A stretch of DNA of 43,252 nucleotides from a virus. Below, piece by piece: positions 22,359 through 39,047 of this stretch; within the stretch, counting starts at the first letter, position 1; the number at the start of each line of letters is the position of its first letter. Below the pieces are notes generated by a model. It made no database searches. It worked only from the letters and a program-made list of their open reading frames with translations, and had not been told where the DNA came from. The stretch spans positions 1 through 43,252 of IMG/VR virus record IMGVR_UViG_3300003155_000004; one strand, 5' to 3'. The translations under genes and the position numbers were made by a program.

Positions 22359-22469
22359 ATGACAGCACAGCACAGCACAGCAAAAAACAGCACAGCACAG
22401 CACAGCACACAGGATTGTAATCTGACCGGAATAGCCTGTCAAGTCCCGGAGGTGATGCTATGTCACTGA
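22359..22469 (+). CDS. possible 36-aa leader-type sORF containing the ACAGC repeat
   Basis: ATG 11 nt after AAAGGAGAG. Encodes MTAQHSTAKNSTAQHSTQDCNLTGIACQVPEVMLCH. Its stop at 22467-22469 overlaps the next gene's ATG (22460). Confidence 0.3.
   Translation: MTAQHSTAKNSTAQHSTQDCNLTGIACQVPEVMLCH
22362..22410. repeat. pentanucleotide microsatellite (ACAGC)4-AAAAA-(ACAGC)4-ACAC
   Basis: Direct reading: block 1 at 22362..22381, A run at 22382..22386, block 2 at 22387..22406. Confidence 0.95.
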
Positions 22470-23923: not shown

Positions 23924-24252
23924 CTATGAACATGGAAGTTTTAATGCAGTATATTACTTATGCACTGACTGCGATCGGCGTATTGGCATTCTTGACGAGT
24001 ATCATCACGCAGGTGATCAAAGAGATGCCGGGGCTCAAGAACATCCAGACAAACGCTGTGGCGCTGGTGATCGCGCTGATTCTGTGTCCGTTGGCGGTGG
24101 TGATCATGTGTATTTATTTGCAGATCGCGATCATGTGGTATTACATTGTCGGATCCGTGATCGCGGCGTTTATTGTTTACCTGGTCGCTACTGGTGGCTG
24201 GGAGAAGGTCGCTGAGATGTGGGCACGGACGAAATATAATAAGACAAAATAA
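23920..24252 (+). CDS. holin
   Basis: 110 aa with three hydrophobic helices and a charged C-terminus (ARTKYNKTK), directly upstream of the endolysin. Confidence 0.8.
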   Translation: MTMNMEVLMQYITYALTAIGVLAFLTSIITQVIKEMPGLKNIQTNAVALVIALILCPLAVVIMCIYLQIAIMWYYIVGSVIAAFIVYLVATGGWEKVAEMWARTKYNKTK

Positions 24253-24256
24253 ACCA

Positions 24257-24280
24257 GGGGACGGGAAACCGTCCTCTTTT
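24257..24280 (+). terminator. rho-independent terminator between holin and endolysin
   Basis: GGGGACGG-GAAA-CCGTCCTC (8 bp, one G.U) followed by TTTT. Confidence 0.7.
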
Positions 24281-24283
24281 CAG

Positions 24284-24301
24284 TGTTGCGACGTCGCAAC
24301 A
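24284..24301. promoter_or_regulatory. perfect 18-bp palindrome TGTTGCGACGTCGCAACA
   Basis: The sequence equals its own reverse complement. It ends 2 nt before the endolysin RBS GAAAGGAG. Confidence 0.6.
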
Positions 24302-24314
24302 GAAAGGAGTACAT

Positions 24315-25217
24315 ATGTCATATAGTAGAAATGCAGTAGTAAAACAGGCTCAGGCGTGGATCGGCCTGAAAGAGTCGAACGGATCCCATAAGCAGATTAT
24401 TGATCTGTATAACAGTCACAAGCCACTAGCGAGAGGGTACAAAGTAAAATATACAGACGCTTGGTGCGCGACGTTCGTGTCAGCTGTGGCCATCAAGTTG
24501 GGATATACGGCGATTATTCCGACCGAGTGCGGATGTGACAAACAGATTGCCCTCTTTAAAAAGCTCGGGGCGTGGCAGGAAAAAGACTCTTATAAACCGA
24601 GTCCGGGCGACATTATCTATTACGACTGGCAGGATAGCGGATCTGGAGACAATGTGGGCGGATCTGATCATGTCGGAATTGTAGAGAAAGTATCTGGAAA
24701 CACGATCACTGTGATCGAGGGTAACAAGAGTGATGCAGTCGGTCGTAGAACACTTGCAGTAAACGGAAAGTTTATCAGAGGGTACGGTGTTCCGAAATAC
24801 GAGGCGAGCGGAAACCCGACTCCTGCTCCGGCTCCGTCTAATCCGTCCACGCCAAGCAACAACGATCTCGGTGACATCGCAGTAGATGGGCAGTGGGGAT
24901 GTGCGACAACGAAAAAAGCGCAGCAGGTATTCGGCTGCTCTGCCGTTGACGGATACGTTTCCAATCAGCCGGCAGCGTACAAGAGTGCAAATCCCGGTCT
25001 ACTCTCTCAGACATTCCTCTGGGAATCACCTTGTACCGGATGCTCACCTTTAATCAAGGCGATTCAGAAGAAAGTCGGAGCTACACAGGACGGACGTATC
25101 GGACCGAATACGATCAAGGCCATGCAGAGATGGCTCGGCTGCTCTGTAGTTGATGGCTATGTTTCCAGAACATCGCCGATGGTCAAGGCATTTCAGGCTT
25201 GGCTGAATAAACAGTAA
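24315..25217 (+). CDS. endolysin: N-terminal CHAP/NlpC-P60-like amidase-peptidase plus two C-terminal peptidoglycan-binding repeats
   Basis: Catalytic-type Cys in YTDAWCATFVS and His in GSDHVGIV. Repeats: DGQWGCATTKKAQQVFGCSAVDGYVS and DGRIGPNTIKAMQRWLGCSVVDGYVS. Confidence 0.88.
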   Translation: MSYSRNAVVKQAQAWIGLKESNGSHKQIIDLYNSHKPLARGYKVKYTDAWCATFVSAVAIKLGYTAIIPTECGCDKQIALFKKLGAWQEKDSYKPSPGDIIYYDWQDSGSGDNVGGSDHVGIVEKVSGNTITVIEGNKSDAVGRRTLAVNGKFIRGYGVPKYEASGNPTPAPAPSNPSTPSNNDLGDIAVDGQWGCATTKKAQQVFGCSAVDGYVSNQPAAYKSANPGLLSQTFLWESPCTGCSPLIKAIQKKVGATQDGRIGPNTIKAMQRWLGCSVVDGYVSRTSPMVKAFQAWLNKQ

Positions 25218-25224
25218 TAATTTA

Positions 25225-25257
25225 CCCCGGGGCTATTGCTCCGGGGATTTTTTTATT
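25225..25257. terminator. terminator shared by the convergent endolysin and minus-strand operon
   Basis: 9-bp stem CCCCGGGGC-TATT-GCTCCGGGG followed by ATTTTTTTATT. It overlaps the 3' end of the minus-strand ORF. Confidence 0.8.
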
Positions 25258-25418
25258 GTCAATATTCCATTTTTACAATCGAGGATTACGGATCTGTCCT
25301 CTTCTGTGACTCCCAGTTCTCGAATCATGTCTGCCGGGATTGAGACACGGTAGTTTTTGGTATTTGCGCCGGAATGTCCACCAGCTTTGTTAATCATTAT
25401 ATTGCGTTTTACTTGCAT
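25233..25418 (-). CDS. AbrB/SpoVT/MazE-fold DNA-binding protein (moron operon gene 3)
   Basis: YRVSIPADMIRELGVTEEDRSVILDCKNGILTIKK is the swapped-hairpin AbrB-type pattern. The ATG lies 1 nt after the upstream stop, with RBS GAGGAGGG inside the upstream gene. Confidence 0.75.
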   Translation of the reverse strand: MQVKRNIMINKAGGHSGANTKNYRVSIPADMIRELGVTEEDRSVILDCKNGILTIKKSPEQ

Positions 25419-25419
25419 A

Positions 25420-25752
25420 TCAGCCCTCCTCTATCTCTCTACTGCAATAATTCATATACCTCATATACAAGTCCGCAAGATCGTCAAAGTCGCCTTCGCT
25501 TGTCAATAAATATGTCCCGTATTCACCAAAGCCGTGGTTTTCTGTAATTTCGTAGCAAAATGCTTTTCCTACATTCTTGCTGTCGTAGACATATTTTGTC
25601 ACGAAAACATCTGTTGTGATATACGGAACCTTAATTTGTTCCTCTCTAATTTTCGTGAGCACAATTCCGTTTTTCTCAGCAGCTTCTTCTGCGGTTCGCT
25701 CTCCGATTATTGTGTCTTTCACATAATTCCCGTTGTAATTAAAATCTTCCAT
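25420..25752 (-). CDS. acidic protein of unknown function (moron operon gene 2)
   Basis: ATG 4 nt after AAGGAGGA (MEDFNYNGNYVKD...). 110 aa. No recognisable motif. Confidence 0.7.
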   Translation of the reverse strand: MEDFNYNGNYVKDTIIGERTAEEAAEKNGIVLTKIREEQIKVPYITTDVFVTKYVYDSKNVGKAFCYEITENHGFGEYGTYLLTSEGDFDDLADLYMRYMNYCSREIEEG

Positions 25753-25853
25753 TTCATCCTCCTTGTTAAATTTCACATTGCGTATTGCTTGCATTGTATG
25801 CCATCCTGATATATAATCATATATGCGGCGCGCAGTAGATCCATAGTGGAATG

Positions 25854-25873
25854 TAGATATAATATTGTATCTA
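25854..25873. promoter_or_regulatory. 20-bp near-perfect palindrome TAGATATAAT.ATTGTATCTA (candidate operator)
   Basis: Symmetric at 9 of 10 positions. It lies between operon genes 1 and 2, inside a GCGGCGC...GCGCCGC long-range stem. Confidence 0.45.
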
Positions 25874-25886
25874 TAAAAAGCGCCGC

Positions 25887-26273
25887 TTATCTAATGATTA
25901 TATCTTCGAATCTTTTTTCAAACTCCTCTTTCATGTGATTAAATCTCGTTCCGCTCATGTTGAGAACAAGAACATCAGTTACATAATTATAATATATCTG
26001 AGTTCTCCTGTACGCTTTTGGGTTATCAAACCCGAAAACATCAGCTATACGTTCCACGTCATTAATATAGATCCTATCCTGTGCAACAGAACCATCTTCA
26101 TTTTTCTTAGTCCACCTTTTTCCACCGTTTTCCATCAAAAAATCTTCTAACGCTTTTGTCATTTCTTTCGCTTCCTTCCACGCTTTTTTGAGTCCAGCGG
26201 AAATTGTCATACCCGCTTTTTTAACAAGCTCCCATGCTCTTTTCATGATGTTTGATAAGTTGTATTTTTTCAT
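25887..26273 (-). CDS. protein of unknown function (moron operon gene 1)
   Basis: ATG 7 nt after AAGGAGGA (MKKYNLSNIMKRAWELVKKAG...). 128 aa. The helical N-terminus has a KRAWE...KKAWKEAK pattern. Confidence 0.7.
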   Translation of the reverse strand: MKKYNLSNIMKRAWELVKKAGMTISAGLKKAWKEAKEMTKALEDFLMENGGKRWTKKNEDGSVAQDRIYINDVERIADVFGFDNPKAYRRTQIYYNYVTDVLVLNMSGTRFNHMKEEFEKRFEDIIIR

Positions 26274-26311
26274 TTCCGTGTCCTCCTTGTTTATTTCCTT
26301 TCTGTGATTAT

Positions 26312-26340
26312 ATAATAACATACTGGACACCAGTAGTCAA
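26312..26340 (-). promoter_or_regulatory. sigma-70-type promoter TTGACT-17 nt-TATTAT for the moron operon
   Basis: On the minus strand the -35 is at 26340..26335 and the -10 at 26317..26312, about 40 nt upstream of the gene 1 ATG. Confidence 0.65.
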
Positions 26341-26354
26341 GAGGAAAATGAAAG

Positions 26355-26387
26355 AAATTTAAAAATCCCGGAGCCATCAACTCCGGG
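26355..26387 (-). terminator. minus-strand rho-independent terminator downstream of attP core
   Basis: CCCGGAG-TTGATGG-CTCCGGG (7 bp) followed by ATTTTTAAATTT on the minus strand. Confidence 0.7.
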
Positions 26388-26419
26388 GTGGGATATTGTA
26401 TCATCTTCATGTTTTTATG

Positions 26420-26665
26420 TTGCATCGTATTGCATTTCATATTGCATTGTGTTGCATAATGTTATAAAAATTCTAATATTTGAGAATTATTATTAAATAA
26501 CTAAAATCAAGAAAACCGCGTATTTACGGGATTTATCGGCATTTCCCATAAACTCACGGTTTCTTAAAATACTGGAGTATACGGGATTCGAACAGACTCA
26601 CTAAACCGCTATAAACCGCGTATTTAGTGGGTTTGTGAAATTCCGTTTTGCATTTCATATTGCAT
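26420..26665. other. attP region (core plus arm-type repeats)
   Basis: AT-rich and adjacent to the integrase 3' end. TTGCAT occurs six times (26420, 26430, 26442, 26452, 26648, 26660). AAACCGCGTATTTA occurs twice, exactly 100 bp apart (26513, 26613), flanking the tRNA-like core. Confidence 0.7.
26573..26593 (-). other. tRNA 3'-end mimic (putative attP core)
   Basis: The minus strand reads GTTCGAATCCCGTATACTCCA: T-loop TTCGAAT, T-stem 3' half, a 7-nt acceptor 3' strand and a discriminator. The 5' T-stem partner is absent, so this is only a gene fragment. Confidence 0.65.
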
Positions 26666-27712
26666 ATCGTTCTGTAATTCTGAGAAGTGAGCCATAATCT
26701 GTTTATTAAATTTGGCAGCTTCGTCAGATATTTCCCCGAAATATACCCTCTTCATAACATTGTCCGTTGCCCAGCCTCCCCGCGCCATTATGTATTGATC
26801 CGGTATGTTCATAGCATGGAGAATGGAAGCGCAGTAGTGGCGCAGGTCATGAAAGCGAAAGTGCGGCAGTCCGGAAAAGCGGATCGCCCTGTTGAAACGG
26901 CTTGATATTTGCCCGGGAGTAGCCTTAACGATTTCACCTTTGATACCGCTGATCCGCGCAATTACAAAGTCTGGCATAACGATGATCCGGTTACTAGAGT
27001 CTGTCTTGGGAGAATGTTTCAGTACCCATTTATTATTCCTATCCAGAACATATACTTTGTTTACCGATACTGTATTCCCGATAATGTCCTGATCAGTCAG
27101 CGCGCAGATCTCTCCGCGCCGCATCGGCCCGAATGCTGCAAGCAGAATCGCTATCTCAAGCTCCTTCCCCTGTACGTGCTGGAGCAGGCGCTTCACGTCC
27201 GCATCTGACGGAGTATACAGCTTTTTTCTTTGATTCTGTGGCAGAGACACAGAAAAGTGCGCTCCCGGTATGAACATATCCAATGTGGCAGAGATCAGGC
27301 CGTAAATATTCCGTACAGTCTTTGGCGTCCGTCCGACAGAGAGCTTTTGGATCCAGAGCTGCAGATCTTCCGAAGTGAGATCCCTCAGTTCAATCTGGCT
27401 GATATCGTCGAGGTAATTCCGCAGGATGCTCTGGTATCCCCGGATTGTTGCCGGTGATAGAACTCCGTCCTTGGAATCAATATACTTTTGCACTGCCTCG
27501 ATTACTTTGATCCGATCCGGTCGTTTCATCCGGTTCTTTTCGTGGGCAAACAACGCTGCCTGTGCCTGCACAGCCTTTTTGTCATATCCGGTAAATGATT
27601 CATATACGCGGTGTTCATCCCACGCTTTTTTATCAGGATTCCAAGTCCGTTCAGTGTGGCTGTACACCTGACAATGCCATGATCCGGATGGGAGCTTTTT
27701 GACTTTTGGCAT
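26624..27712 (-). CDS. int: tyrosine recombinase integrase
   Basis: ATG 8 nt after AAGGAGA (MPKVKKLPSGSW...). Catalytic pattern: MRRGEICAL (R), FRFHDLRHYCAS (H-x-x-R ... H), GGWATDNVMKRVYF (Y). Confidence 0.92.
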   Translation of the reverse strand: MPKVKKLPSGSWHCQVYSHTERTWNPDKKAWDEHRVYESFTGYDKKAVQAQAALFAHEKNRMKRPDRIKVIEAVQKYIDSKDGVLSPATIRGYQSILRNYLDDISQIELRDLTSEDLQLWIQKLSVGRTPKTVRNIYGLISATLDMFIPGAHFSVSLPQNQRKKLYTPSDADVKRLLQHVQGKELEIAILLAAFGPMRRGEICALTDQDIIGNTVSVNKVYVLDRNNKWVLKHSPKTDSSNRIIVMPDFVIARISGIKGEIVKATPGQISSRFNRAIRFSGLPHFRFHDLRHYCASILHAMNIPDQYIMARGGWATDNVMKRVYFGEISDEAAKFNKQIMAHFSELQNDMQYEMQNGISQTH

Positions 27713-27844
27713 GGTAATCATCTCCTTTATGGTATAAAAATGACAGCCAGACAATGAACGGATGTTCTGGATTGTGTGGCTGCCCCGAAGATGATACAAT
27801 ATTCTTGGAACGTACTGTAGTATCTTCGGAGCTATGGTCTATCG

Positions 27845-27878
27845 CCGCTCTGGTGTTGGCGCACCGGGGCGGTTTTTT
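27845..27878 (+). terminator. plus-strand rho-independent terminator between two minus-strand genes
   Basis: 11-bp stem CCGCTCTGGTG-TTGGCG-CACCGGGGCGG (two G.U pairs, so it is stable only on the + strand) followed by TTTTTT. Confidence 0.65.
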
Positions 27879-27880
27879 AA

Positions 27881-28234
27881 TTATGCTGTTTTATTGCCTT
27901 TGATAAGTGATACAATAGCTAATACAGCGCAGATCAAGCACCATGTTGCCCAGATATAGAGATCTCCATAACTTCCAGCCATTGTATAGCCACAAAGCGC
28001 ACCGATTCCGAATAGCACGATCAAAGCGATATTTCCGCCTTTTCCACCTTTGCGGGTAGCTATTGAAACAATGCCGCCTGCCAGAAGCATAATAGCAACA
28101 ATGATGCCGGCAGATCCGCCAACTTCCCCATTGGCTTCAAGTGTGTTTGCAACACCGGCTGCGCAGGACTGGAATGTTACGAAAACAAACAGTACGATTG
28201 ATAAAATTCCGGATACGAGTTTCCAAGTTTTCAT
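27881..28234 (-). CDS. polytopic membrane protein in the lysogeny module (candidate superinfection exclusion)
   Basis: ATG after AGAGGAA (MKTWKLVSGILSIVLFVFV...). 117 aa with about four hydrophobic helices. Confidence 0.75.
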   Translation of the reverse strand: MKTWKLVSGILSIVLFVFVTFQSCAAGVANTLEANGEVGGSAGIIVAIMLLAGGIVSIATRKGGKGGNIALIVLFGIGALCGYTMAGSYGDLYIWATWCLICAVLAIVSLIKGNKTA

Positions 28235-28306
28235 TTTTCTATTCCTCTCTTTCCTCTTTTTGTTCCTTGAACACCACATATATGTTATCACGCACCTGTG
28301 TAATAA

Positions 28307-29032
28307 CTAAAAATCATACAACCATTTTAGATGCTGACGCTGCAATATACAGTCGTTGTCATCATAATATCCACCAATATATTGATACTGTTCTTTTGGA
28401 GCTGGCGGAAGAGAGCATATCTTGCAATGGCTTTCCATCGAATTATATAGAACTCTACCGCAGAAGCAGCAGTTCTGCTTACTCCAAACAAAACATTTCT
28501 GATCTTTATTGTAAAAATGTGCGTACATTGCTTTGTCAGCAGCAGACATCTTATACATCACTACATTCCGGTGCCAGCGCCGGTAATCTATAAAGGCGTT
28601 GTCAGCGGCCTCGAAGGACATATCAAATAATCTTGCCACGTCATTCGCATTTTTGCATCTGGAATAGTGGATTGCCATCCGTGGAGCCAGTATGTGACTG
28701 GCAAAAGCATTTGCCTCTTTTTCGTTCTGATCAGATACCCCATTGTGCCCCAGAACATGATGCCCCAGTTCATGCATCAGTGAAAACCGGATACGCCCAT
28801 GAGGGCGATCGGGATTGTACGCTACGATCTTCGACGCACCTGCTCGGAAAGCATCCTCAGAGTACCCAAGACTCAGACTATACAATTCTGGGTTCCGGTC
28901 ACGTAATTCCTTATAGGAAAAAAGCCGGTACCCGTAATGCTTGAGTAAATCCTCACAGTCGATCGGAAACGAATGGACACCACATTTCCGGAACACTTCA
29001 ATGGTTGCAGTAACAATTTTGTTGTAATCCAA
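28307..29032 (-). CDS. ImmA/IrrE-family zinc metallopeptidase (anti-repressor protease) with a C-terminal Cys-rich region
   Basis: HELGHHVLGH HEXXH motif, located directly downstream of the XRE repressor. Confidence 0.88.
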   Translation of the reverse strand: MDYNKIVTATIEVFRKCGVHSFPIDCEDLLKHYGYRLFSYKELRDRNPELYSLSLGYSEDAFRAGASKIVAYNPDRPHGRIRFSLMHELGHHVLGHNGVSDQNEKEANAFASHILAPRMAIHYSRCKNANDVARLFDMSFEAADNAFIDYRRWHRNVVMYKMSAADKAMYAHFYNKDQKCFVWSKQNCCFCGRVLYNSMESHCKICSLPPAPKEQYQYIGGYYDDNDCILQRQHLKWLYDF

Positions 29033-31954: not shown

Positions 31955-32188
31955 ATGGCGAAAACAATCTATGAGCTTAAAGAAAACATCCTTACCCTTC
32001 CGAAGATCAAGGAAACGGATGTGTACCACACAGAGCTGAACCGGGTCAGTTGGTTTGGGAAAGAACCGAAGCTGGATATCCGGGGATGGTCAGATGACCA
32101 TGAAAAAATGACAAAAGGGATCAGCCTCACTGAGGATGAATTTATAAAAATCGCCCAGGCAGGGCTTGAAAAATTAGGAGGTAAATGA
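31955..32188 (+). CDS. PC4/YdbC-like ssDNA-binding protein
   Basis: ELNRVSWFGKEPKLDIRGWSDDHEKMTKGISLTEDEF matches the YdbC-type pattern. Confidence 0.7.
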   Translation: MAKTIYELKENILTLPKIKETDVYHTELNRVSWFGKEPKLDIRGWSDDHEKMTKGISLTEDEFIKIAQAGLEKLGGK

Positions 32189-32601
32189 TTATGGCACAGA
32201 TCACAGTAGTTTACAAGGATTTTGAGGAGATGAAAGCAGTTGCAAGAGAGCTTCTGAAGGATGAACTGAAGGAAAGCCAGGGAGTGGCCGGGCAGAGGCC
32301 GGCTGCGCCTGTAACACCGCCGGCACCGGTTCCTCCTGCACCCGCTGCGGCCCCTGCGGCGCCCACAGCTCCCACGCAGAATGCACCCACAGCTCCAGCA
32401 CCCCCCGCAGTGCCGACTTCTGCACCGAGCTATACGCGAGATGACCTCTCACGGGCCGCGATGACGCTGATGGATAAGGGAATGCAGGCACAGCTACAGC
32501 AGCTGATCCAGAGCTACGGGGTAAACTCCCTGGTTGAGCTCCCCCAGGACCAGTATGGGAACTTTGCGACCGCACTTCGGGGAATGGGGGCTCAGATCTG
32601 A
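32185..32601 (+). CDS. Pro/Ala-rich linker protein of the replication module
   Basis: 138 aa with a central PAAPVTPPAPVPPAPAAAPAAPTAPTQNAPTAPAPPAVP segment. Confidence 0.65.
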   Translation: MIMAQITVVYKDFEEMKAVARELLKDELKESQGVAGQRPAAPVTPPAPVPPAPAAAPAAPTAPTQNAPTAPAPPAVPTSAPSYTRDDLSRAAMTLMDKGMQAQLQQLIQSYGVNSLVELPQDQYGNFATALRGMGAQI

Positions 32602-33782
32602 TGAAACATGAAGAAAGAGACCATGCACTTTTGAGCGCTTCTGGGGCGCACAGGTGGCTACTGTGTACCCCGAGCGCAAAGTTGGAAGAGCAGTTTCCAG
32701 ATACGACGTCCGAAGCTGCAAAGGAAGGGACACTTGCACATGAGCTCGCTGAGCTGAAGGTGAGAAATTATTTCAACCCTGATGAAGTGTCAAAGAGGAA
32801 ACTTACATATGCGGTTAAAAAGCTGAAAGAAAATGAACTATGGCAGGATGAGATGATCACCCATACGGATACATACCTGGATTATATCCGGGATATATCG
32901 GTAAAGCTCCCATCACAGCCAGCGGTAGAGGTTGAAAAACATCTGGACCTCGGGGCATATGTGCCGGAGGGCTTCGGGACAGCGGACTTCATCATGCTCC
33001 AGGGCGGGGATCTATATGTCGTAGATTTCAAATACGGAAAAGGCGTCCCTGTTTCCGCAGAAGAAAACCCTCAGATGATGCTGTACGCCCTGGGAGCCTA
33101 CCGCGCTTATTGTTTCCTGTACCCGATCCGGGATATCCATCTGGCAATCGTACAGCCGCGGCTGGACATCATATCGGAATGGAGTTGTTCGTTGGATGGA
33201 CTGCTTAAGTTCGGCATCTATGTGACAGAGCGAGCATCACTTGCGATCAAAGGAGAGGGAGACTTCTGCCCGGGAGAAAAGCAGTGCAGGTTCTGCAGGG
33301 CGAAACAGCAGTGCCGCGCCCGTGCGGATTATAACGTGCAGATGGCTTTCAGCCCGGACAAAGGGAAACTACCCCCACTCATTACGGCTGCCGAAGCCGG
33401 GGAATACCTCACGCGTGGGGAAGACGTAGAAAAGTGGCTGAAGGACCTGAAAGAATGGGCGTTGGCTGAGTGCCTTGCAGGAAAGAGCGTGCCTGGATGG
33501 AAAGCCGTAGAGGGGCGCGGATCCCGCGATTGGACCGACATGGATGCCGCATTTGACAGGCTGACGAAGTCCGGCGTGACAGAAGAGGCGATGCTGTGGG
33601 AAAAGAAGCCGCCGACACTCGCTCAGGTAGAAAAACTGGTAGGAAAGAAAGACTTCCAGGACGCGGTCGGGGAGTTTGTCGTTAAGAAGCCAGGGAAGCC
33701 GGCCCTGGTAAAAGAATCCGACAAGAGAGAAGCGATCACAAACAAAGTAACCGCCGCAGAGGCGTTTAAGGAGGAGAAATAA
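32601..33782 (+). CDS. PD-(D/E)XK nuclease, DUF2800 / Cas4-like with Cys cluster
   Basis: GTADFIML...LYVVDFKYGKG nuclease core. LLCTPS ... CPGEKQCRFCRAKQQC four-Cys pattern. Confidence 0.8.
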   Translation: MKHEERDHALLSASGAHRWLLCTPSAKLEEQFPDTTSEAAKEGTLAHELAELKVRNYFNPDEVSKRKLTYAVKKLKENELWQDEMITHTDTYLDYIRDISVKLPSQPAVEVEKHLDLGAYVPEGFGTADFIMLQGGDLYVVDFKYGKGVPVSAEENPQMMLYALGAYRAYCFLYPIRDIHLAIVQPRLDIISEWSCSLDGLLKFGIYVTERASLAIKGEGDFCPGEKQCRFCRAKQQCRARADYNVQMAFSPDKGKLPPLITAAEAGEYLTRGEDVEKWLKDLKEWALAECLAGKSVPGWKAVEGRGSRDWTDMDAAFDRLTKSGVTEEAMLWEKKPPTLAQVEKLVGKKDFQDAVGEFVVKKPGKPALVKESDKREAITNKVTAAEAFKEEK

Positions 33783-33783
33783 C

Positions 33784-34452
33784 ATGAGTTTTGGAGATAT
33801 CACAAACGTAACTACAGGAGAAGCGAGATTATCATATGTGCACCTGTTTAAGCCGTATGCGCACCAGCCGGGGGCAGAAGAGAAGTTCAGCTGTACAATC
33901 CTTGTCCCGAAATCAGACACCGCCACAAAGGCGCGGATCGACGCTGCGATCGAAGCGGCAAAGCAGAAGGGGATCTCGGGGAAGTGGAACGGGGTGTGCC
34001 CGCCGATCGTCCCGAATCCCGTGCATGACGGCGACGGCGTGAGACCGTCAGACGGGATGCCTTTTGGGGCGGAGTGTAAGGGGCACTGGGTATTTACCGC
34101 CAACACCAGCGTCGATTATCCCCCGGAAGTCGTGGACCAGAACGGGAACCCGATGATCAACCAGTCTGAGATGTACAGCGGGGTGTACGCCATGGTAAAC
34201 GTAGAGTTCTTTCCGTATATGTTCGGAGGGAAAAAGGGGATTGGGTGCAGTCTCGGACCGGTGAAGAAAGTGAGGGACGGGGAACCTCTCGGAGGCAGTG
34301 CCCCGACTGCAGCGCAGGCTTTTGGCGCACCGCAGCCGGCACCCGAAAAGAGTACGGCGGGGGCTGCTTATCAGTCACAGGGGGCGACACCGCCCTGGAC
34401 TCAGAATCCGATGACAGGGAATATCAATCCGATCACGGGACTCCCGATGTAA
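33784..34452 (+). CDS. DUF2815-family ssDNA-binding protein
   Basis: TGEARLSYVHLFKP N-terminus, with synteny after DUF2800 and before the DNA polymerase. Confidence 0.75.
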   Translation: MSFGDITNVTTGEARLSYVHLFKPYAHQPGAEEKFSCTILVPKSDTATKARIDAAIEAAKQKGISGKWNGVCPPIVPNPVHDGDGVRPSDGMPFGAECKGHWVFTANTSVDYPPEVVDQNGNPMINQSEMYSGVYAMVNVEFFPYMFGGKKGIGCSLGPVKKVRDGEPLGGSAPTAAQAFGAPQPAPEKSTAGAAYQSQGATPPWTQNPMTGNINPITGLPM

Positions 34453-34455
34453 CTT

Positions 34456-34475
34456 AGAGGGGCGAAAGCCCCTCT
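34456..34475 (+). other. perfect 8-bp hairpin with GAAA tetraloop
   Basis: AGAGGGGC-GAAA-GCCCCTCT with no U tract, between the SSB and polymerase genes. Confidence 0.7.
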
Positions 34476-34495
34476 GATAGACTGGAGATGATTTT

Positions 34496-36469
34496 ATGCA
34501 GCACTTAAGCATTGATATAGAGACAAGAAGCAGTGCGGATATTGGCAAGACCGGTCTGTACCGGTATGCACAGGACAAGGATTTCGGGATCCTGCTGTTC
34601 GCGTATAAGCTGGATGGATCTCCTGTTGAGATCGTGGACCTTGAATGCGGGGAAGAGATACCGGATCAGGTTATCCGGTATCTGGAAGACCCATCGGTCA
34701 TAAAGCACGCCTACAATGCAGCGTTTGAATGGTACTGCCTGAACCAGGCAGGATACCGGACGCCGCTGGAACAGTGGAAGTGCACCATGATCCACGGTCT
34801 ATACTGCGGTTATACCGCCGGGCTGGATGCAACAGGCAAAGCGATCGGGCTACCGCAGGATAAACAGAAACTGACGACAGGAAAGGCCCTGATCCGGTAT
34901 TTCTGTGTGCCGTGCAAGCCGACTAAGAGTAATGGCGGACGATCCTGGAACCTTCCGAAACACGCCCCGGAAAAATGGAAACTTTTTAAAGAGTATTGCG
35001 TACAGGACGTTGTCACGGAAAACGAGATCCTCAAACGCCTGAGTGCGTTCCCGGTCCCGGAAGCAGAGGAGAGGCTCTGGCAGATGGACGTCCGGATGAA
35101 CGCATTCGGGGTAAGGGTGGACACCGGGCTTATTTCCGGTGCCCTTGCGATAGACGGGATCAGCACGCGGGAGCTGACAGACGAGGCGGTCGGAATCACA
35201 GGGCTTTCCAATCCGAACAGCACAGGCCAGCTCCTTCAGTGGCTGACGGAACAGGGAGTGCAGATGGATAATCTCCAGAAAGCGACCGTTGAAGAAACCC
35301 TGGGACAGGATACACTCCCCCAAAATGTGCGGCGCATTTTAGAGATACGCCAGCAGTTGGGGAAAACTTCTGTCAAGAAGTATACAGCTATGCAGACTGC
35401 AAAGTGTGAGGACGACAGGATCCGGGGGCTGACCCAGTTTTATGGGGCGAACAGGACCGGACGGTGGGCCGGGCGGCTTGTTCAGTTGCAGAACCTGCCG
35501 AGAAACTATCTGAAAACACTGGATTATGCAAGAAACCTTGTGAAGGCACAGAACTATGAGGGAATCCGGCTGCTGTACGGCAATGTGCCGGATACGCTTT
35601 CCCAGCTGATCCGTACCGCGTTTATCCCGTCAGAAGGGCATAAATTCGTAGTGGCAGACTTTTCTGCTATTGAGGCGAGGGTGATCGCCTGGCTTGCCGG
35701 GGAGCAGTGGGTGAACGAGGTTTTCGCCACCCACGGGAAGATCTATGAGGCGACCGCATCGCAGATGTTCCATGTCCCGATCGAGAAGATCGTGAAGGGC
35801 AGCCCGGAATACAGCCTGCGCCAGAAAGGGAAGGTTGCCACCCTTGCCCTGGGATACCAGGGCGGCACGTCTGCACTGATCGCGATGGGCGCCCTGAACA
35901 TGGGGCTTACAGAAGAGGAACTGCCCGATATCGTAGCCCGGTGGCGGAACGCAAACCCGCGGATCCGGGATCTGTGGTACGCAGTGGAGGGGACTGCACT
36001 TGCTGCTATGACGACAGCAGAGCCACAGGCTATGCGCGGGCTGATCTTCCGCCTGGAAGGGGACCTGCTGTACGGGCAGTCTTTCCTGACTGTGCAACTG
36101 CCGAGCGGGCGGAAGCTGTTTTACCCGAAGCCTTTCCTGCAGGAGAACAGGTTTGGCAGGATGGCGATCCACTATTACACGGTTGGACAGCAGACCCGGA
36201 AATGGGAAGTGGATTCCACTTATGGCGGGAAGATGACGGAAAACATCGTCCAGGCGATCGCAAGGGACTGCCTGGCAGAAACACTCAGGAGGATCGACCG
36301 CCTCGGGCTGCAGGTAGTGTTCCATGTACATGATGAGGTGATCATCGATGCACCTGCGGACGTGACAGTAGATCAGATCTGCAGTCTGATGGCCGAGCCG
36401 ATCCCGTGGGCCCCGGGCCTGATCCTGAAAGGCGCGGGATTTGAAAGTAATTATTATATGAAAGATTAG
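34496..36469 (+). CDS. family A DNA polymerase with 3'-5' exonuclease domain
   Basis: LSIDIETRS (Exo I), VADFSAIEARVIAWL (motif A), RQKGKVATLALGYQGG (motif B), HVHDEVII (motif C). Confidence 0.92.
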   Translation: MQHLSIDIETRSSADIGKTGLYRYAQDKDFGILLFAYKLDGSPVEIVDLECGEEIPDQVIRYLEDPSVIKHAYNAAFEWYCLNQAGYRTPLEQWKCTMIHGLYCGYTAGLDATGKAIGLPQDKQKLTTGKALIRYFCVPCKPTKSNGGRSWNLPKHAPEKWKLFKEYCVQDVVTENEILKRLSAFPVPEAEERLWQMDVRMNAFGVRVDTGLISGALAIDGISTRELTDEAVGITGLSNPNSTGQLLQWLTEQGVQMDNLQKATVEETLGQDTLPQNVRRILEIRQQLGKTSVKKYTAMQTAKCEDDRIRGLTQFYGANRTGRWAGRLVQLQNLPRNYLKTLDYARNLVKAQNYEGIRLLYGNVPDTLSQLIRTAFIPSEGHKFVVADFSAIEARVIAWLAGEQWVNEVFATHGKIYEATASQMFHVPIEKIVKGSPEYSLRQKGKVATLALGYQGGTSALIAMGALNMGLTEEELPDIVARWRNANPRIRDLWYAVEGTALAAMTTAEPQAMRGLIFRLEGDLLYGQSFLTVQLPSGRKLFYPKPFLQENRFGRMAIHYYTVGQQTRKWEVDSTYGGKMTENIVQAIARDCLAETLRRIDRLGLQVVFHVHDEVIIDAPADVTVDQICSLMAEPIPWAPGLILKGAGFESNYYMKD

Positions 36470-36479
36470 GAGAGCGGGC

Positions 36480-38888
36480 ATGCAGTATAACCGGAAATTA
36501 ATGATCAGCACAGCGGGAAGCCGAAAGGCGACTTACTGGCCGAAAAGCGAGATCATGTGGTCCGACTTCGCTGAAAAACTAAAAACGCCGGTACAGAGCC
36601 CGGAGACAATGGAGCAGTACCTGTCCATGCCGAAGAACCGACAGTCGGAATTAAAGGACGTGGGCGGGTTCGTAGGCGGAACGTTCACAAACGACCGGAG
36701 AAAAAGCGTCTATATCCAGGGCAGGGATCTCCTGACCCTTGATCTGGATAATATCCCGGCAGGACAGACAGGAGATCTCCTGAAGCGTGTGTCCGGACTG
36801 GGATGTGCCGCTGCAGTATACAGTACCAGGAAGCATACAGGGTATTCCCCGCGGCTCCGTGTCATCCTGCCGTTAGACAGGACTGCAACCGCAGATGAAT
36901 ATGAGCCCGCGGCGAGAAAGGCGGCGTCCCTGATCGGGATGGAATACTGCGACCCGACGACATTTGACCCCTGCCGGCTGATGTACTGGCCAAGTGTCTG
37001 CTGCGATGGGGAATACATATATGAGGTCTATGACAACCCATTCTGCAGCCTTGACGGACTGCTTGCTATGTACGGTGACTGGAGGAATGTGGAGGAGTGG
37101 CCACAGGTTCCCGGTTCGGATGCGGTCCAGCGGCGCCGCGTGGCGAAACAGGAAGACCCTACCTCAAAGCGAGGGATCATCGGGGCTTTCTGCAGGACTT
37201 ATACGGTTTCCCAGGCAATGGATAAATTCATCCCCGGGATGTATGAACCTACTGACATCCCCGGGAGATATACCTATACCGGGGGATCCACGACCGGCGG
37301 AGCAATCGTGTATGACGGAGACATGTTCCTGTATTCACACCACGCGACAGACCCGTGTTCCGGGCAGCTGGTCAATGCGTTCGACCTGATCCGGCTGCAT
37401 ATGTTCGGGGACAGGGACCATGAGTCAAAGGAAGGGACTCCGGTAAATAAGCTCCCATCATATGTAGCTATGAGCCGGCTTGCCAGCGAGGATAAAAACG
37501 TGTCCGGGCTGCTTGCAAAAGAGCGGATCGAACAGGCAAAAGAAGTATTCGGGATCAGCCAGCAGGAAACCGGACAGGAAGAGGATACAGACTGGGTGCT
37601 GAGGCTTACGAGGGATGGTAACGGGCGTGTGGAAAAGACGATTGCGAACGTGACGCTTGTACTGGAAAATGACCCTCTTTTAAAAGGGAAGATCGTGACG
37701 GATGAATTTGCTTCCTGCGGGATGACTACCGGCGGACTCCCGTGGGACCTCCACAGTGGCAAGCGCAGGTGGAAAGATGTGGACTATGCGGGATATTACA
37801 GATACATGGAGACATTCTACGGGCTGACTGGGCGTGAGAAACTGGACAACGGGCTCCTGATCGTGAGCAGCCAGAATAGGATCAATGACGTGAGGGAATA
37901 TCTCCAGGGACTGAAATGGGACGGCGTGAAGCGCGTGGACCGGCTCCTGCAGGATTATCTGGGCGCGGAAGACAACGCATACACCCGGGCGGTCATGCGG
38001 AAATCCCTGTGCGCAGCTGTGGCCCGGGCAGTAGAGGGCGGCGTGAAATACGACTACATGCCGATCTTTACAGGGCCGCAGGGGATCGGGAAGAGCACCT
38101 TCCTGTCCATCCTGGGGAAAGACTGGTTCTCGGACTCCCTCACGACATTTGAGGGGAAAGAAGCAGCAGAATTGATCCAGGGGACATGGATCAATGAGGT
38201 GGGCGAGCTGACGGCGATGACGAAACAGGAGACGTCTGCTGTAAAGCAGTTCCTGAGCAAGACCCATGACATCTACCGGGCGGCATATGGGCGCACAACG
38301 AACAAATACCCGCGCCGGTGCGTGTTCTTCGGAACGTCCAACGACAGTGAGTTCCTGAAAGACTCTACCGGGAACCGGAGGTTCTGGCCGGTGGATGTGG
38401 GGCTGCACAGGGCGAAGAAATCCGTGTGGAACGACCTGCCCGGTGAGGTGGACCAGGTCTGGGCGGAAGCATACTGCTACTGGATGCTGGGGGAGCCCCT
38501 GTATCTCCCAAAAGAGGTGGAGAAGCTGGCAGAGGAGCAGCAGGAGAACCACAGGGAGGCTTATGCCAAGGAGGGCGTGATCCGGGAATTCCTGGACCGT
38601 GAGATCCCACAGGACTGGAATACGATGACACTGATGCAGCGTCGGCAGTTCTACCAGGGATCCCTCCATCTCCCGGAGGGGTCGGTGTTGGTCCCCAGGG
38701 AAAAGGTATGCGCGGCAGAGATCTGGCAGGAATGCTTCGGGAGCGACCTGAAGTATATGACAAAGCGGGACAGCATGGAGATCAACAGCATCATGCAGTG
38801 CATTCCGGGATGGAGAAGGAACAGGTCTTCACAGAGATATGGGTTCTACGGGACACAGAGAGGGTTCGAAAGGGTGTCAACAACTTAA
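36480..38888 (+). CDS. primase-helicase, VirE-family P-loop NTPase with an N-terminal prim-pol-like domain
   Basis: 802 aa. Walker A is FTGPQGIGKST. The VirE-type C-terminal half and synteny support the call. Confidence 0.85.
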   Translation: MQYNRKLMISTAGSRKATYWPKSEIMWSDFAEKLKTPVQSPETMEQYLSMPKNRQSELKDVGGFVGGTFTNDRRKSVYIQGRDLLTLDLDNIPAGQTGDLLKRVSGLGCAAAVYSTRKHTGYSPRLRVILPLDRTATADEYEPAARKAASLIGMEYCDPTTFDPCRLMYWPSVCCDGEYIYEVYDNPFCSLDGLLAMYGDWRNVEEWPQVPGSDAVQRRRVAKQEDPTSKRGIIGAFCRTYTVSQAMDKFIPGMYEPTDIPGRYTYTGGSTTGGAIVYDGDMFLYSHHATDPCSGQLVNAFDLIRLHMFGDRDHESKEGTPVNKLPSYVAMSRLASEDKNVSGLLAKERIEQAKEVFGISQQETGQEEDTDWVLRLTRDGNGRVEKTIANVTLVLENDPLLKGKIVTDEFASCGMTTGGLPWDLHSGKRRWKDVDYAGYYRYMETFYGLTGREKLDNGLLIVSSQNRINDVREYLQGLKWDGVKRVDRLLQDYLGAEDNAYTRAVMRKSLCAAVARAVEGGVKYDYMPIFTGPQGIGKSTFLSILGKDWFSDSLTTFEGKEAAELIQGTWINEVGELTAMTKQETSAVKQFLSKTHDIYRAAYGRTTNKYPRRCVFFGTSNDSEFLKDSTGNRRFWPVDVGLHRAKKSVWNDLPGEVDQVWAEAYCYWMLGEPLYLPKEVEKLAEEQQENHREAYAKEGVIREFLDREIPQDWNTMTLMQRRQFYQGSLHLPEGSVLVPREKVCAAEIWQECFGSDLKYMTKRDSMEINSIMQCIPGWRRNRSSQRYGFYGTQRGFERVSTT

Positions 38889-39047
38889 GCCGACAAAGTG
38901 CGGACGCGTCGACAAAGCAGGGTGTTTTGTCAACAAAACCGGGAAAAATCGAGTTTGTTCACAAGTTGACAGGAATGTTGCGGAGACGTTAACACGGAAA
39001 ACCCAGTAAATACGCTGTTTTCTATAATATGTCAACAATGTCAACAA
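38875..39047. repeat. iteron array TGTCAACAA (4 direct copies, 2 abutting) plus an inverted partial copy and CGACAAAG x2
   Basis: Direct copies at 38875, 38928, 39030 and 39039. GTTGACA at 38965..38971. CGACAAAG at 38891 and 38910. Confidence 0.8.

Follow-up and report, generated by a model that had tools for sequence, protein, structure and literature searches.

The IMG/VR virus record IMGVR_UViG_3300003155_000004, analyzed here over its whole length of 43,252 nucleotides (nt; the window, whose numbering is used throughout), carries a compact cassette of three minus-strand genes, referred to as g1, g2, and g3. The cassette lies between an endolysin with CHAP and peptidoglycan (PG)-binding domains (24315-25217, plus strand) and a tyrosine integrase (26624-27715, minus strand). 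An original prediction made from the letters of the DNA had described the genes next to this endolysin as an autonomous operon, ending in a DNA-binding protein of the AbrB/SpoVT fold, in the slot between lysis genes and phage attachment site (attP). The promoter, the upstream hairpin, the three genes each led by a ribosome-binding site (RBS), the coupling of g2 to g3, and the low GC content all lie where that prediction had placed them, as follows.

26387..26358, minus strand: upstream hairpin CCCGGAG..CTCCGGG followed by a T-run, a terminator-like match with 9 pairs
26340..26312, minus strand: sigma-70-type promoter TTGACT-17-TATTAT, with a TG extended -10 at 26320..26319
26321..26335: dyad TACTGG-TGT-CCAGTA in the spacer between -35 and -10, the proposed g3 operator
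26274..26311, minus strand: 5' untranslated region (UTR), within the conserved left block described below
26273..25887, minus strand: g1, 128 amino acids (aa), with the RBS GGAGG at 26286..26282 in the UTR
Between 25887 and 25752, minus strand: g1-g2 spacer of 134 nt
25752..25420, minus strand: g2, 110 aa, isoelectric point (pI) 4.4, with AAGGAGG in front
25418..25233, minus strand: g3, 61 aa, with GAGGAGG inside g2
25225..25246, with a T-run to 25256, plus strand: downstream hairpin, overlapping the g3 stop and forming the right edge of the conserved block

The cassette promoter scores 10/12 and is the best minus-strand promoter match within 24200-28400. Over the whole stretch there are 15 promoter-like matches, compared to 9.5±2.7 in shuffles, and 12 terminator-like matches, compared to 3.9±2.1. 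The upstream hairpin may act as an insulator against transcription from the integrase side. An alternative g2 ATG further upstream, at 25794, would give a protein of 124 aa, but the position of the RBS favors the 110-aa start. The ATG of g3 follows 1 nt past the g2 TGA, an arrangement of translational coupling. The GC content of the cassette is 38.4%, compared to 48.2% for the window, and falls in the lowest 3.8% of equal-sized windows. The downstream hairpin had been proposed as a bidirectional terminator, which held for one strand: its T-run lies on the plus strand, so that it would terminate the convergent endolysin transcript, whereas, read on the minus strand, it lacks a clean U-tract and shares sequence with the final codons of g3. 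A putative structured RNA in the g1-g2 intergenic region (a GCGGCGC...GCGCCGC stem) showed no folding advantage over shuffled sequence (z = 0.15), and an Rfam scan of 25100-26750 returned no family at gathering score.

Constant and exchanged parts of the cassette family

We compared 56 related loci (given L numbers below), which were collected via g3 instead of g2. The triad recurs well beyond this virus, a point to which the original prediction had attached weight: complete copies occur in a Mediterraneibacter metagenome-assembled genome and in numerous contigs from gut metagenomes (L001-L013, L021, L030, and L031 among the loci). These intact triads adjoin GH25-LysM or CHAP endolysins, together with serine recombinases, a tyrosine integrase, or host genes. 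Because the same triad sits beside varied endolysins and recombinases, we regard it as a mobile cassette at the prophage end, which agrees with the earlier description of an autonomous unit in this slot and adds that the unit is horizontally mobile.

What stays constant across the loci is the promoter with its 13-bp dyad, the start of g1 (~37 codons), and g3. These lie in two blocks with 70-97% nucleotide identity. The left block runs from ~26409 or ~26365 to ~26160 and takes in the upstream hairpin, the promoter, the UTR, and codons 1-37 of g1; the right block, from ~25430 to 25215, holds g3 and the downstream hairpin and stops at the endolysin stop codon whatever the type of endolysin. The ~730 nt between the blocks, encoding the C terminus of g1 and the middle gene or genes, are swapped for at least eight unrelated gene sets. 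Despite these unrelated upstream partners, g3 remains 65-98% identical and is the final gene in every cassette. Among the alternative cargos are AP2-domain proteins, an HA-domain protein, a zinc-ribbon protein, the "MYIKGIG" (96 aa) and "MKKEKLLEKK" (108 aa) proteins, and several proteins of 76 to 104 aa with pI values of 4.0-4.6; like g2, many of the alternatives are very acidic, within that pI range. One locus (L027) keeps the cassette promoter and has a different first gene, followed by g2 and g3, and distant relatives of g2 occur in phage early regions without any g3 (L069 and L070). The triad is therefore not obligate.

Several further features of the family were observed. The hairpins that flank the cassette form an imperfect 34-nt inverted repeat (25224-25257 and 26356-26389, 71% complementary), and the conserved blocks stop at these hairpins, which could be shared recombination joints for cassette exchange. 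The ~60 nt just upstream of g2 (25758-25817) are ~79% conserved at loci whose second gene is unrelated to g2 (L022, L035, and L040); this segment could be an internal signal or another recombination joint. At L018 and L019 (about -847..+31 from g3), the C terminus of a 292-aa AP2-domain protein is a second g3-like AbrB domain (phrog_2329, E = 2e-14), and the gene for this protein lies directly upstream of the stand-alone g3 and overlaps it.

A convergent open reading frame of at least 150 aa ends no more than 200 nt from g3 in 35 of the 48 loci with enough downstream sequence. Most related phages lack the cassette, and the same lysis and integration modules are there joined to other cassettes. 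A megablast search against isolated phages gave only two short matches, in unannotated fecal contigs, and in a plasmid search relatives of g3 were rare and the conserved N terminus of g1 was absent.

g3 and the dyad in the promoter

Profile matches and annotated relatives support, at the family level, the earlier assignment of g3 as an AbrB/SpoVT-type DNA-binding protein. The matches comprise phrog_2329 (E = 9e-13), Pfam PF04014 MazE_antitoxin (20.3 bits, E = 5e-4; curated cutoff, 24.7), TIGR01439 (E = 0.018), and PDB entry C56 (7xi6; E = 3e-3), with archaeal AbrB-family regulators following at E of ~0.5; the open-access literature yielded nothing useful on C56. Relatives of g3 at 78-90% identity bear precomputed PF04014 matches, and a 44%-identical plasmid relative is named AbrB/MazE/SpoVT by NCBI. 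The AbrB domain match covers residues ~20-57, leaving 4 residues and no toxin-binding tail. At least 196 relatives were found, and the ratio of nonsynonymous to synonymous substitution rates (dN/dS) is 0.15, indicating purifying selection.

The dyad core, ACTGG-N3-CCAGT, has its only perfect copy in the window between the -35 and -10 elements of the cassette promoter; a second operator copy was sought in the window and none was found. Among 29 distinct relatives, conservation of the promoter in position and sequence reaches from the start codon up to about -45, beyond which the sequences diverge abruptly. The symmetry of the dyad is kept as its sequence changes: 94.8% of cells in the 29 distinct promoters are complementary, compared to 86.8±1.2% in shuffles, of which 0/500 reached the observed value, and controls in which the dyad was slid along the promoter gave 34-51%. 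All four bases occur at its third position, and each is matched by its symmetric counterpart (T:A, 14; C:G, 7; G:C, 5; A:T, 1). The dyad is present also at loci without the conserved N terminus of g1. As it lies upstream of the transcription start and is not transcribed, its natural ligand should be a dimeric DNA-binding protein, and g3 alone among the DNA binders is always found together with it.

The class of operator tracks residues 15-20 of g3 (positions 15, 16, 18, 19, and 20). Operators of the ACTGG class go with GG[HN]SG[AV]NTKNYRVS in g3, those of the ATTGG class with GGNASKNAxTYKIN or GGTAGKNSKNYKIS, and those of the AGTGG and AATGG classes with GG[TS]SGKGTKNYRVS plus further changes. 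Residue 16 alone partitions perfectly, with S accompanying C, G, or A and A accompanying T. As the constant, covarying partner of the dyad, g3 is best seen as the regulator of the cassette, with g1 and g2 as interchangeable cargo. On this comparative evidence, g3 most likely binds the dyad and represses its own promoter.

g1, g2, and related cassettes

The original prediction could place neither g1 nor g2, and searches of Pfam, PHROGs, NCBIfam, and PADLOC likewise gave nothing above threshold for either protein. g1 is composed of a conserved, basic, helical part (codons 1-37, 26273..26163), referred to here as the N-module, a hairpin (W54-x-K56 ... R67-x-Y69), and a variable small alpha/beta C-terminal domain. 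The consensus of the N-module, over the first ~37 residues, is MKKYNLSNIMKRAWELVKKAGMTISxGLKKAWxEAK, and its charge is +7.5. At least 637 relatives were found, with similarity mainly in the first ~37-45 aa. Its dN/dS is 0.07 at a dS of 1.2, compared to the 0.15 of g3, and selection of this strength argues for a functional protein module, more than a flank for recombination. The AlphaFold2 model of g1 (predicted local distance difference test [pLDDT] score, 84.6) has a long helix at residues 6-48 and a small alpha/beta domain; it matched no PDB fold at an E value of ≤1e-3, and a PDB sequence search gave chance-level matches only. We considered a W-x-K...R-I-Y domain common to g1 and to other first genes before g2-like genes, and rejected it since pairwise BLASTP was not significant.

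Two families resemble the N-module below their cutoffs. Against Pfam PF07410 Phage_Gp111, g1 scores 14.2 bits (gathering score, 27.1) over residues 8-74 only; 3 of 28 g1 relatives match this family at an E value of ≤0.01, and some (P0014) bear a precomputed match. Against NCBIfam NF033948 AcrIIA3_fam, g1 scores 15.4 bits (cutoff, 70) over the first ~40-60 residues only, and N-module proteins show recurring weak matches to the N-terminal half of that family (E = 4e-4 to 0.014, ~15-20 bits). The likeness consists of an N-terminal pair of amphipathic "K-x-A-W" helices and is confined to the N terminus of g1. AcrIIA3 has been reported to be toxic in bacteria and yeast (PMC6331597). The open-access literature on Gp111/PF07410 offered nothing useful. 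Our guess is that the N-module targets a conserved host component or nucleic acid.

The model of g2 (pLDDT, 86.7; predicted template modeling score, 0.82) shows an antiparallel sheet and a C-terminal helix and matched nothing in PDB or BFVD at an E value of ≤1e-3. A SciW/Eag chaperone was the best match, but with a template modeling (TM) score of 0.55 and an E value of 6e-3, it was not taken as evidence. g2 is narrowly distributed, with 13 close relatives and only 21 matches when 1.8 billion representatives were searched exhaustively with a profile. The large proteins among those 21, He_PIG immunoglobulin (Ig)-repeat proteins, matched on a ~30-residue strand pattern and were judged nonhomologous. 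A PDB sequence search with g2 gave chance-level matches only, and g2 did not match AcrIIA3_fam.

Genes with the N-module also head other counter-oriented mini-operons, which end in helix-turn-helix (HTH) regulators and have a palindrome of their own in the promoter spacer. At L057-L061, the last gene encodes an HTH_3 regulator whose C-terminal domain is homologous to the 96-aa cargo, and at L062-L066 it encodes an MqsA-like HTH protein, with the dyad CCACCAAATTGGTGG. An N-module mini-operon ending in an annotated transcriptional regulator occurs also in an isolated phage, Flavonifractor phage Cormatin. These operons suggest that the design of operator-promoter, leader, cargo, and regulator is general and that the regulator is exchangeable. 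At L058 (4449-4901), the gene after the N-module gene encodes a 150-aa HTH_3 regulator whose C-terminal domain is homologous to the "MYIKGIG" cargo, which makes it a fusion of cargo and regulator; fusions of anti-CRISPR (Acr) and anti-CRISPR-associated (Aca) proteins have been reported (PMC8934645). At L060, a Tad2-like (PF11195) gene (586-1074) lies just upstream of the endolysin, which separates it from the N-module/HTH cassette.

Elsewhere in the window, the location given for attP is plausible, as a tRNA-3'-end-like stretch (TGGAGTATACGGGATTCGAAC, 26572-26592) is flanked by direct repeats. The whole region (26413-26678) is repeat rich, with a 35-nt direct repeat (26426-26460 and 26644-26678) whose second copy is inside the 3' end of the integrase gene, a 22-nt tandem at 26413-26457, and a 22-nt direct repeat (26513-26534 and 26613-26634). 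These repeats and the tRNA-like stretch are probably arm-type sites and the att core. A tRNA-Ile(TAT) gene at 2092-2164 is directly followed by a tRNA-like gene (2198-2270) with an abnormal anticodon loop (ARAGORN "tRNA-???", anticodon "aa"), and the region that separates the tail genes from the lysis genes contains an (ACAGC) x 9.6 microsatellite at 22362-22409. GC content is uneven along the genome (53-57% at 32000-39000 versus 44-50% in the structural half and 38% in the cassette), which suggests a mosaic origin. In related prophages, reverse-transcriptase (RVT_1) genes are found only a few genes away from the lysis module (L008, 5542-6753; L009, 3528-4679) and possibly belong to diversity-generating retroelements.

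Possible functions of the cassette

The explanation that we favor, at roughly an even chance of being right, is that the unit belongs to a family of mobile, self-repressed accessory-gene cassettes of gut Lachnospiraceae phages and prophages, with a cargo that may be antidefense. It builds on the anatomy, the mosaic conservation, the dyad covariation, and the purifying selection on the N-module and g3, all of which are observed. In such a cassette, a near-consensus promoter with a dyad operator would drive a g1-type leader, one or two exchangeable cargos (here, the C-terminal domain of g1 and the acidic g2), and the terminal g3. A g3 dimer on the dyad would block RNA polymerase. Entry of the DNA into a cell without g3 would then give a burst of expression, until the build-up of g3 brought the cassette to a low set level, which would also be its state in a lysogen. 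Both g1 and g2 would, as small proteins, inhibit host defense or other host functions. For the cargo taken separately, an antidefense role falls somewhat short of an even chance; it is drawn by analogy, because the cargos are small, acidic, rapidly turning over, and bound to mobile elements, one is fused to a regulator, and relatives lie in early regions.

The closest likeness is to acr-aca operons, which also combine small, fast-evolving, often acidic cargo with a conserved DNA-binding regulator behind it in one operon, have a strong promoter with an inverted-repeat operator, are borne by phages and prophages, and include cargo-regulator fusions. However, g3 is of the AbrB/SpoVT type, whereas the Aca families covered by a preprint are HTH regulators or, for Aca14, which it adds, a ribbon-helix-helix (RHH) protein, and g3 falls in none of the families Aca1-14. 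The text of that preprint contains no mention of AbrB, SpoVT, or MazE (bioRxiv 10.64898/2026.07.27.740549). In addition, the cargo includes no recognized Acr, with the subthreshold match between the N-module and AcrIIA3_fam as the sole link, and the hosts of the cassette are gut Lachnospiraceae. A burst followed by shut-off is known for Aca and also from the establishment genes of pLS20-family conjugative plasmids, in which a small plasmid-encoded repressor silences strong promoters, so that expression is transient after DNA entry (PMC8708921). The repressor of pLS20-family plasmids is an RHH protein, however, the genes lie in the plasmid leading region, and other genes are controlled. Type II toxin-antitoxin (TA) loci such as mazEF and vapBC resemble the cassette in being compact, translationally coupled operons that encode a DNA binder of the AbrB fold and have a palindromic promoter operator. 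The cassette differs from them in having no toxin family or fold, a g3 that is tailless and comes last, and interchangeable partners.

Several points weigh against the favored explanation. The Pfam score of g3 itself is below threshold, and the likeness to AcrIIA3 is far below the curated cutoff (~20 versus 70 bits) and limited to the N terminus. Some alternative cargos have DNA-binding domains (AP2, zinc ribbon, and HA), which is untypical of Acr proteins. The covariation of operator and g3 is confounded by linkage on one short DNA segment, although linkage leaves the symmetric double changes within the dyad unconfounded. Finally, the slot between lysin and attachment site also houses lysogenic-conversion and prophage defense genes, to which steady low expression in the lysogen would be equally suited.

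This last point leads to the possibility that the unit is a lysogenic-conversion cassette, in which g1 and g2 protect the lysogen, through superinfection exclusion or a new small defense system, or alter host physiology, while g3 sets their level. Prophage hotspots carry variable defense genes, and the position at the prophage end between endolysin and att, the opposite strand, the cassette's own promoter and terminators, the low GC content, and the stable low lysogen expression that negative autoregulation gives would all be expected. We nevertheless consider it unlikely: PADLOC-DB v2 gave no family at an E value of ≤1 for g1, g2, or g3, neither g1 nor g2 matched an enzyme, nuclease, or toxin family in Pfam and NCBIfam, and their sequences as read have no long hydrophobic stretch. 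The small size and strong acidity of the cargos also argue against it, as do relatives of g2 and of the N-module that lie between early genes and terminase in phage contigs and an isolated phage, a position that better fits early functions serving the phage. An autoregulated cassette whose cargo acts outside immunity, in replication, transcription, the lysis-lysogeny decision, or host takeover, would account for the DNA-binding domains among the alternative cargos, which include the second AbrB domain, and for the charge and low dN/dS of the N-module, as expected of a protein that binds a conserved host component or nucleic acid. Rapid turnover of cargo, narrow distribution, and low GC content would be more usual for conflict genes than for core regulators, and most related phages do without the cassette while having the same lysis and integration modules, which makes such a role quite improbable.

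The original prediction had likened the operon to TA modules of reversed order or three components and to prophage defense modules. A TA or abortive-infection module in which g3 neutralizes g1, g2, or both and represses the operon would draw on the weak match of g3 to MazE_antitoxin, its coupling to g2, the palindromic operator, and the toxicity of AcrIIA3 noted above. The comparison did not bear this reading out, and we judge it very improbable. g3 has no tail with which to bind a toxin and stays conserved while its partners are unrelated; g2 occurs without g1 and its relatives without g3; g2 is strongly acidic; and for g1 and g2, Pfam, NCBIfam, and the PDB fold search revealed neither MazF, PIN, or Doc nor any further toxin family or fold. 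Because it is tailless, has no toxin fold nearby and no PADLOC matches, and covaries with the dyad, g3 is most likely an autorepressor and not an antitoxin.

Returning to self-repressed cassettes with antidefense cargo, the regulatory logic is known, and what would be new is an AbrB-fold regulator with a covarying series of operators and repressors, together with the N-module leader family. We found no description in open-access texts of an AbrB-fold regulator in an Aca-like role or of the N-module leader family. More tentatively, and with a greater chance of being wrong than right, g3 could represent a new AbrB-fold class of Aca-like autorepressors, and the near-invariant 37-aa N-module, if shared with the N terminus of AcrIIA3, could be a common anchor or effector fused to hundreds of different C-terminal domains, both of them marking a large, unexplored antidefense reservoir in phages of gut Firmicutes. 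If true, this would provide two new anchors for guilt-by-association searches and a set of orthogonal operator/repressor pairs (ACTGG, ATTGG, AGTGG, and AATGG). Very little of the antidefense repertoire of the abundant gut Lachnospiraceae phages has been charted, since the anchors commonly relied upon, HTH Aca families and known Acr proteins, are rare in them. If g3 and the N-module do mark such operons, these genomes could be mined through their relatives. Whatever the cargo does, the natural series of repressors and operators offers a compact, testable case of how DNA recognition by the AbrB fold, whose rules are poorly understood, evolves.

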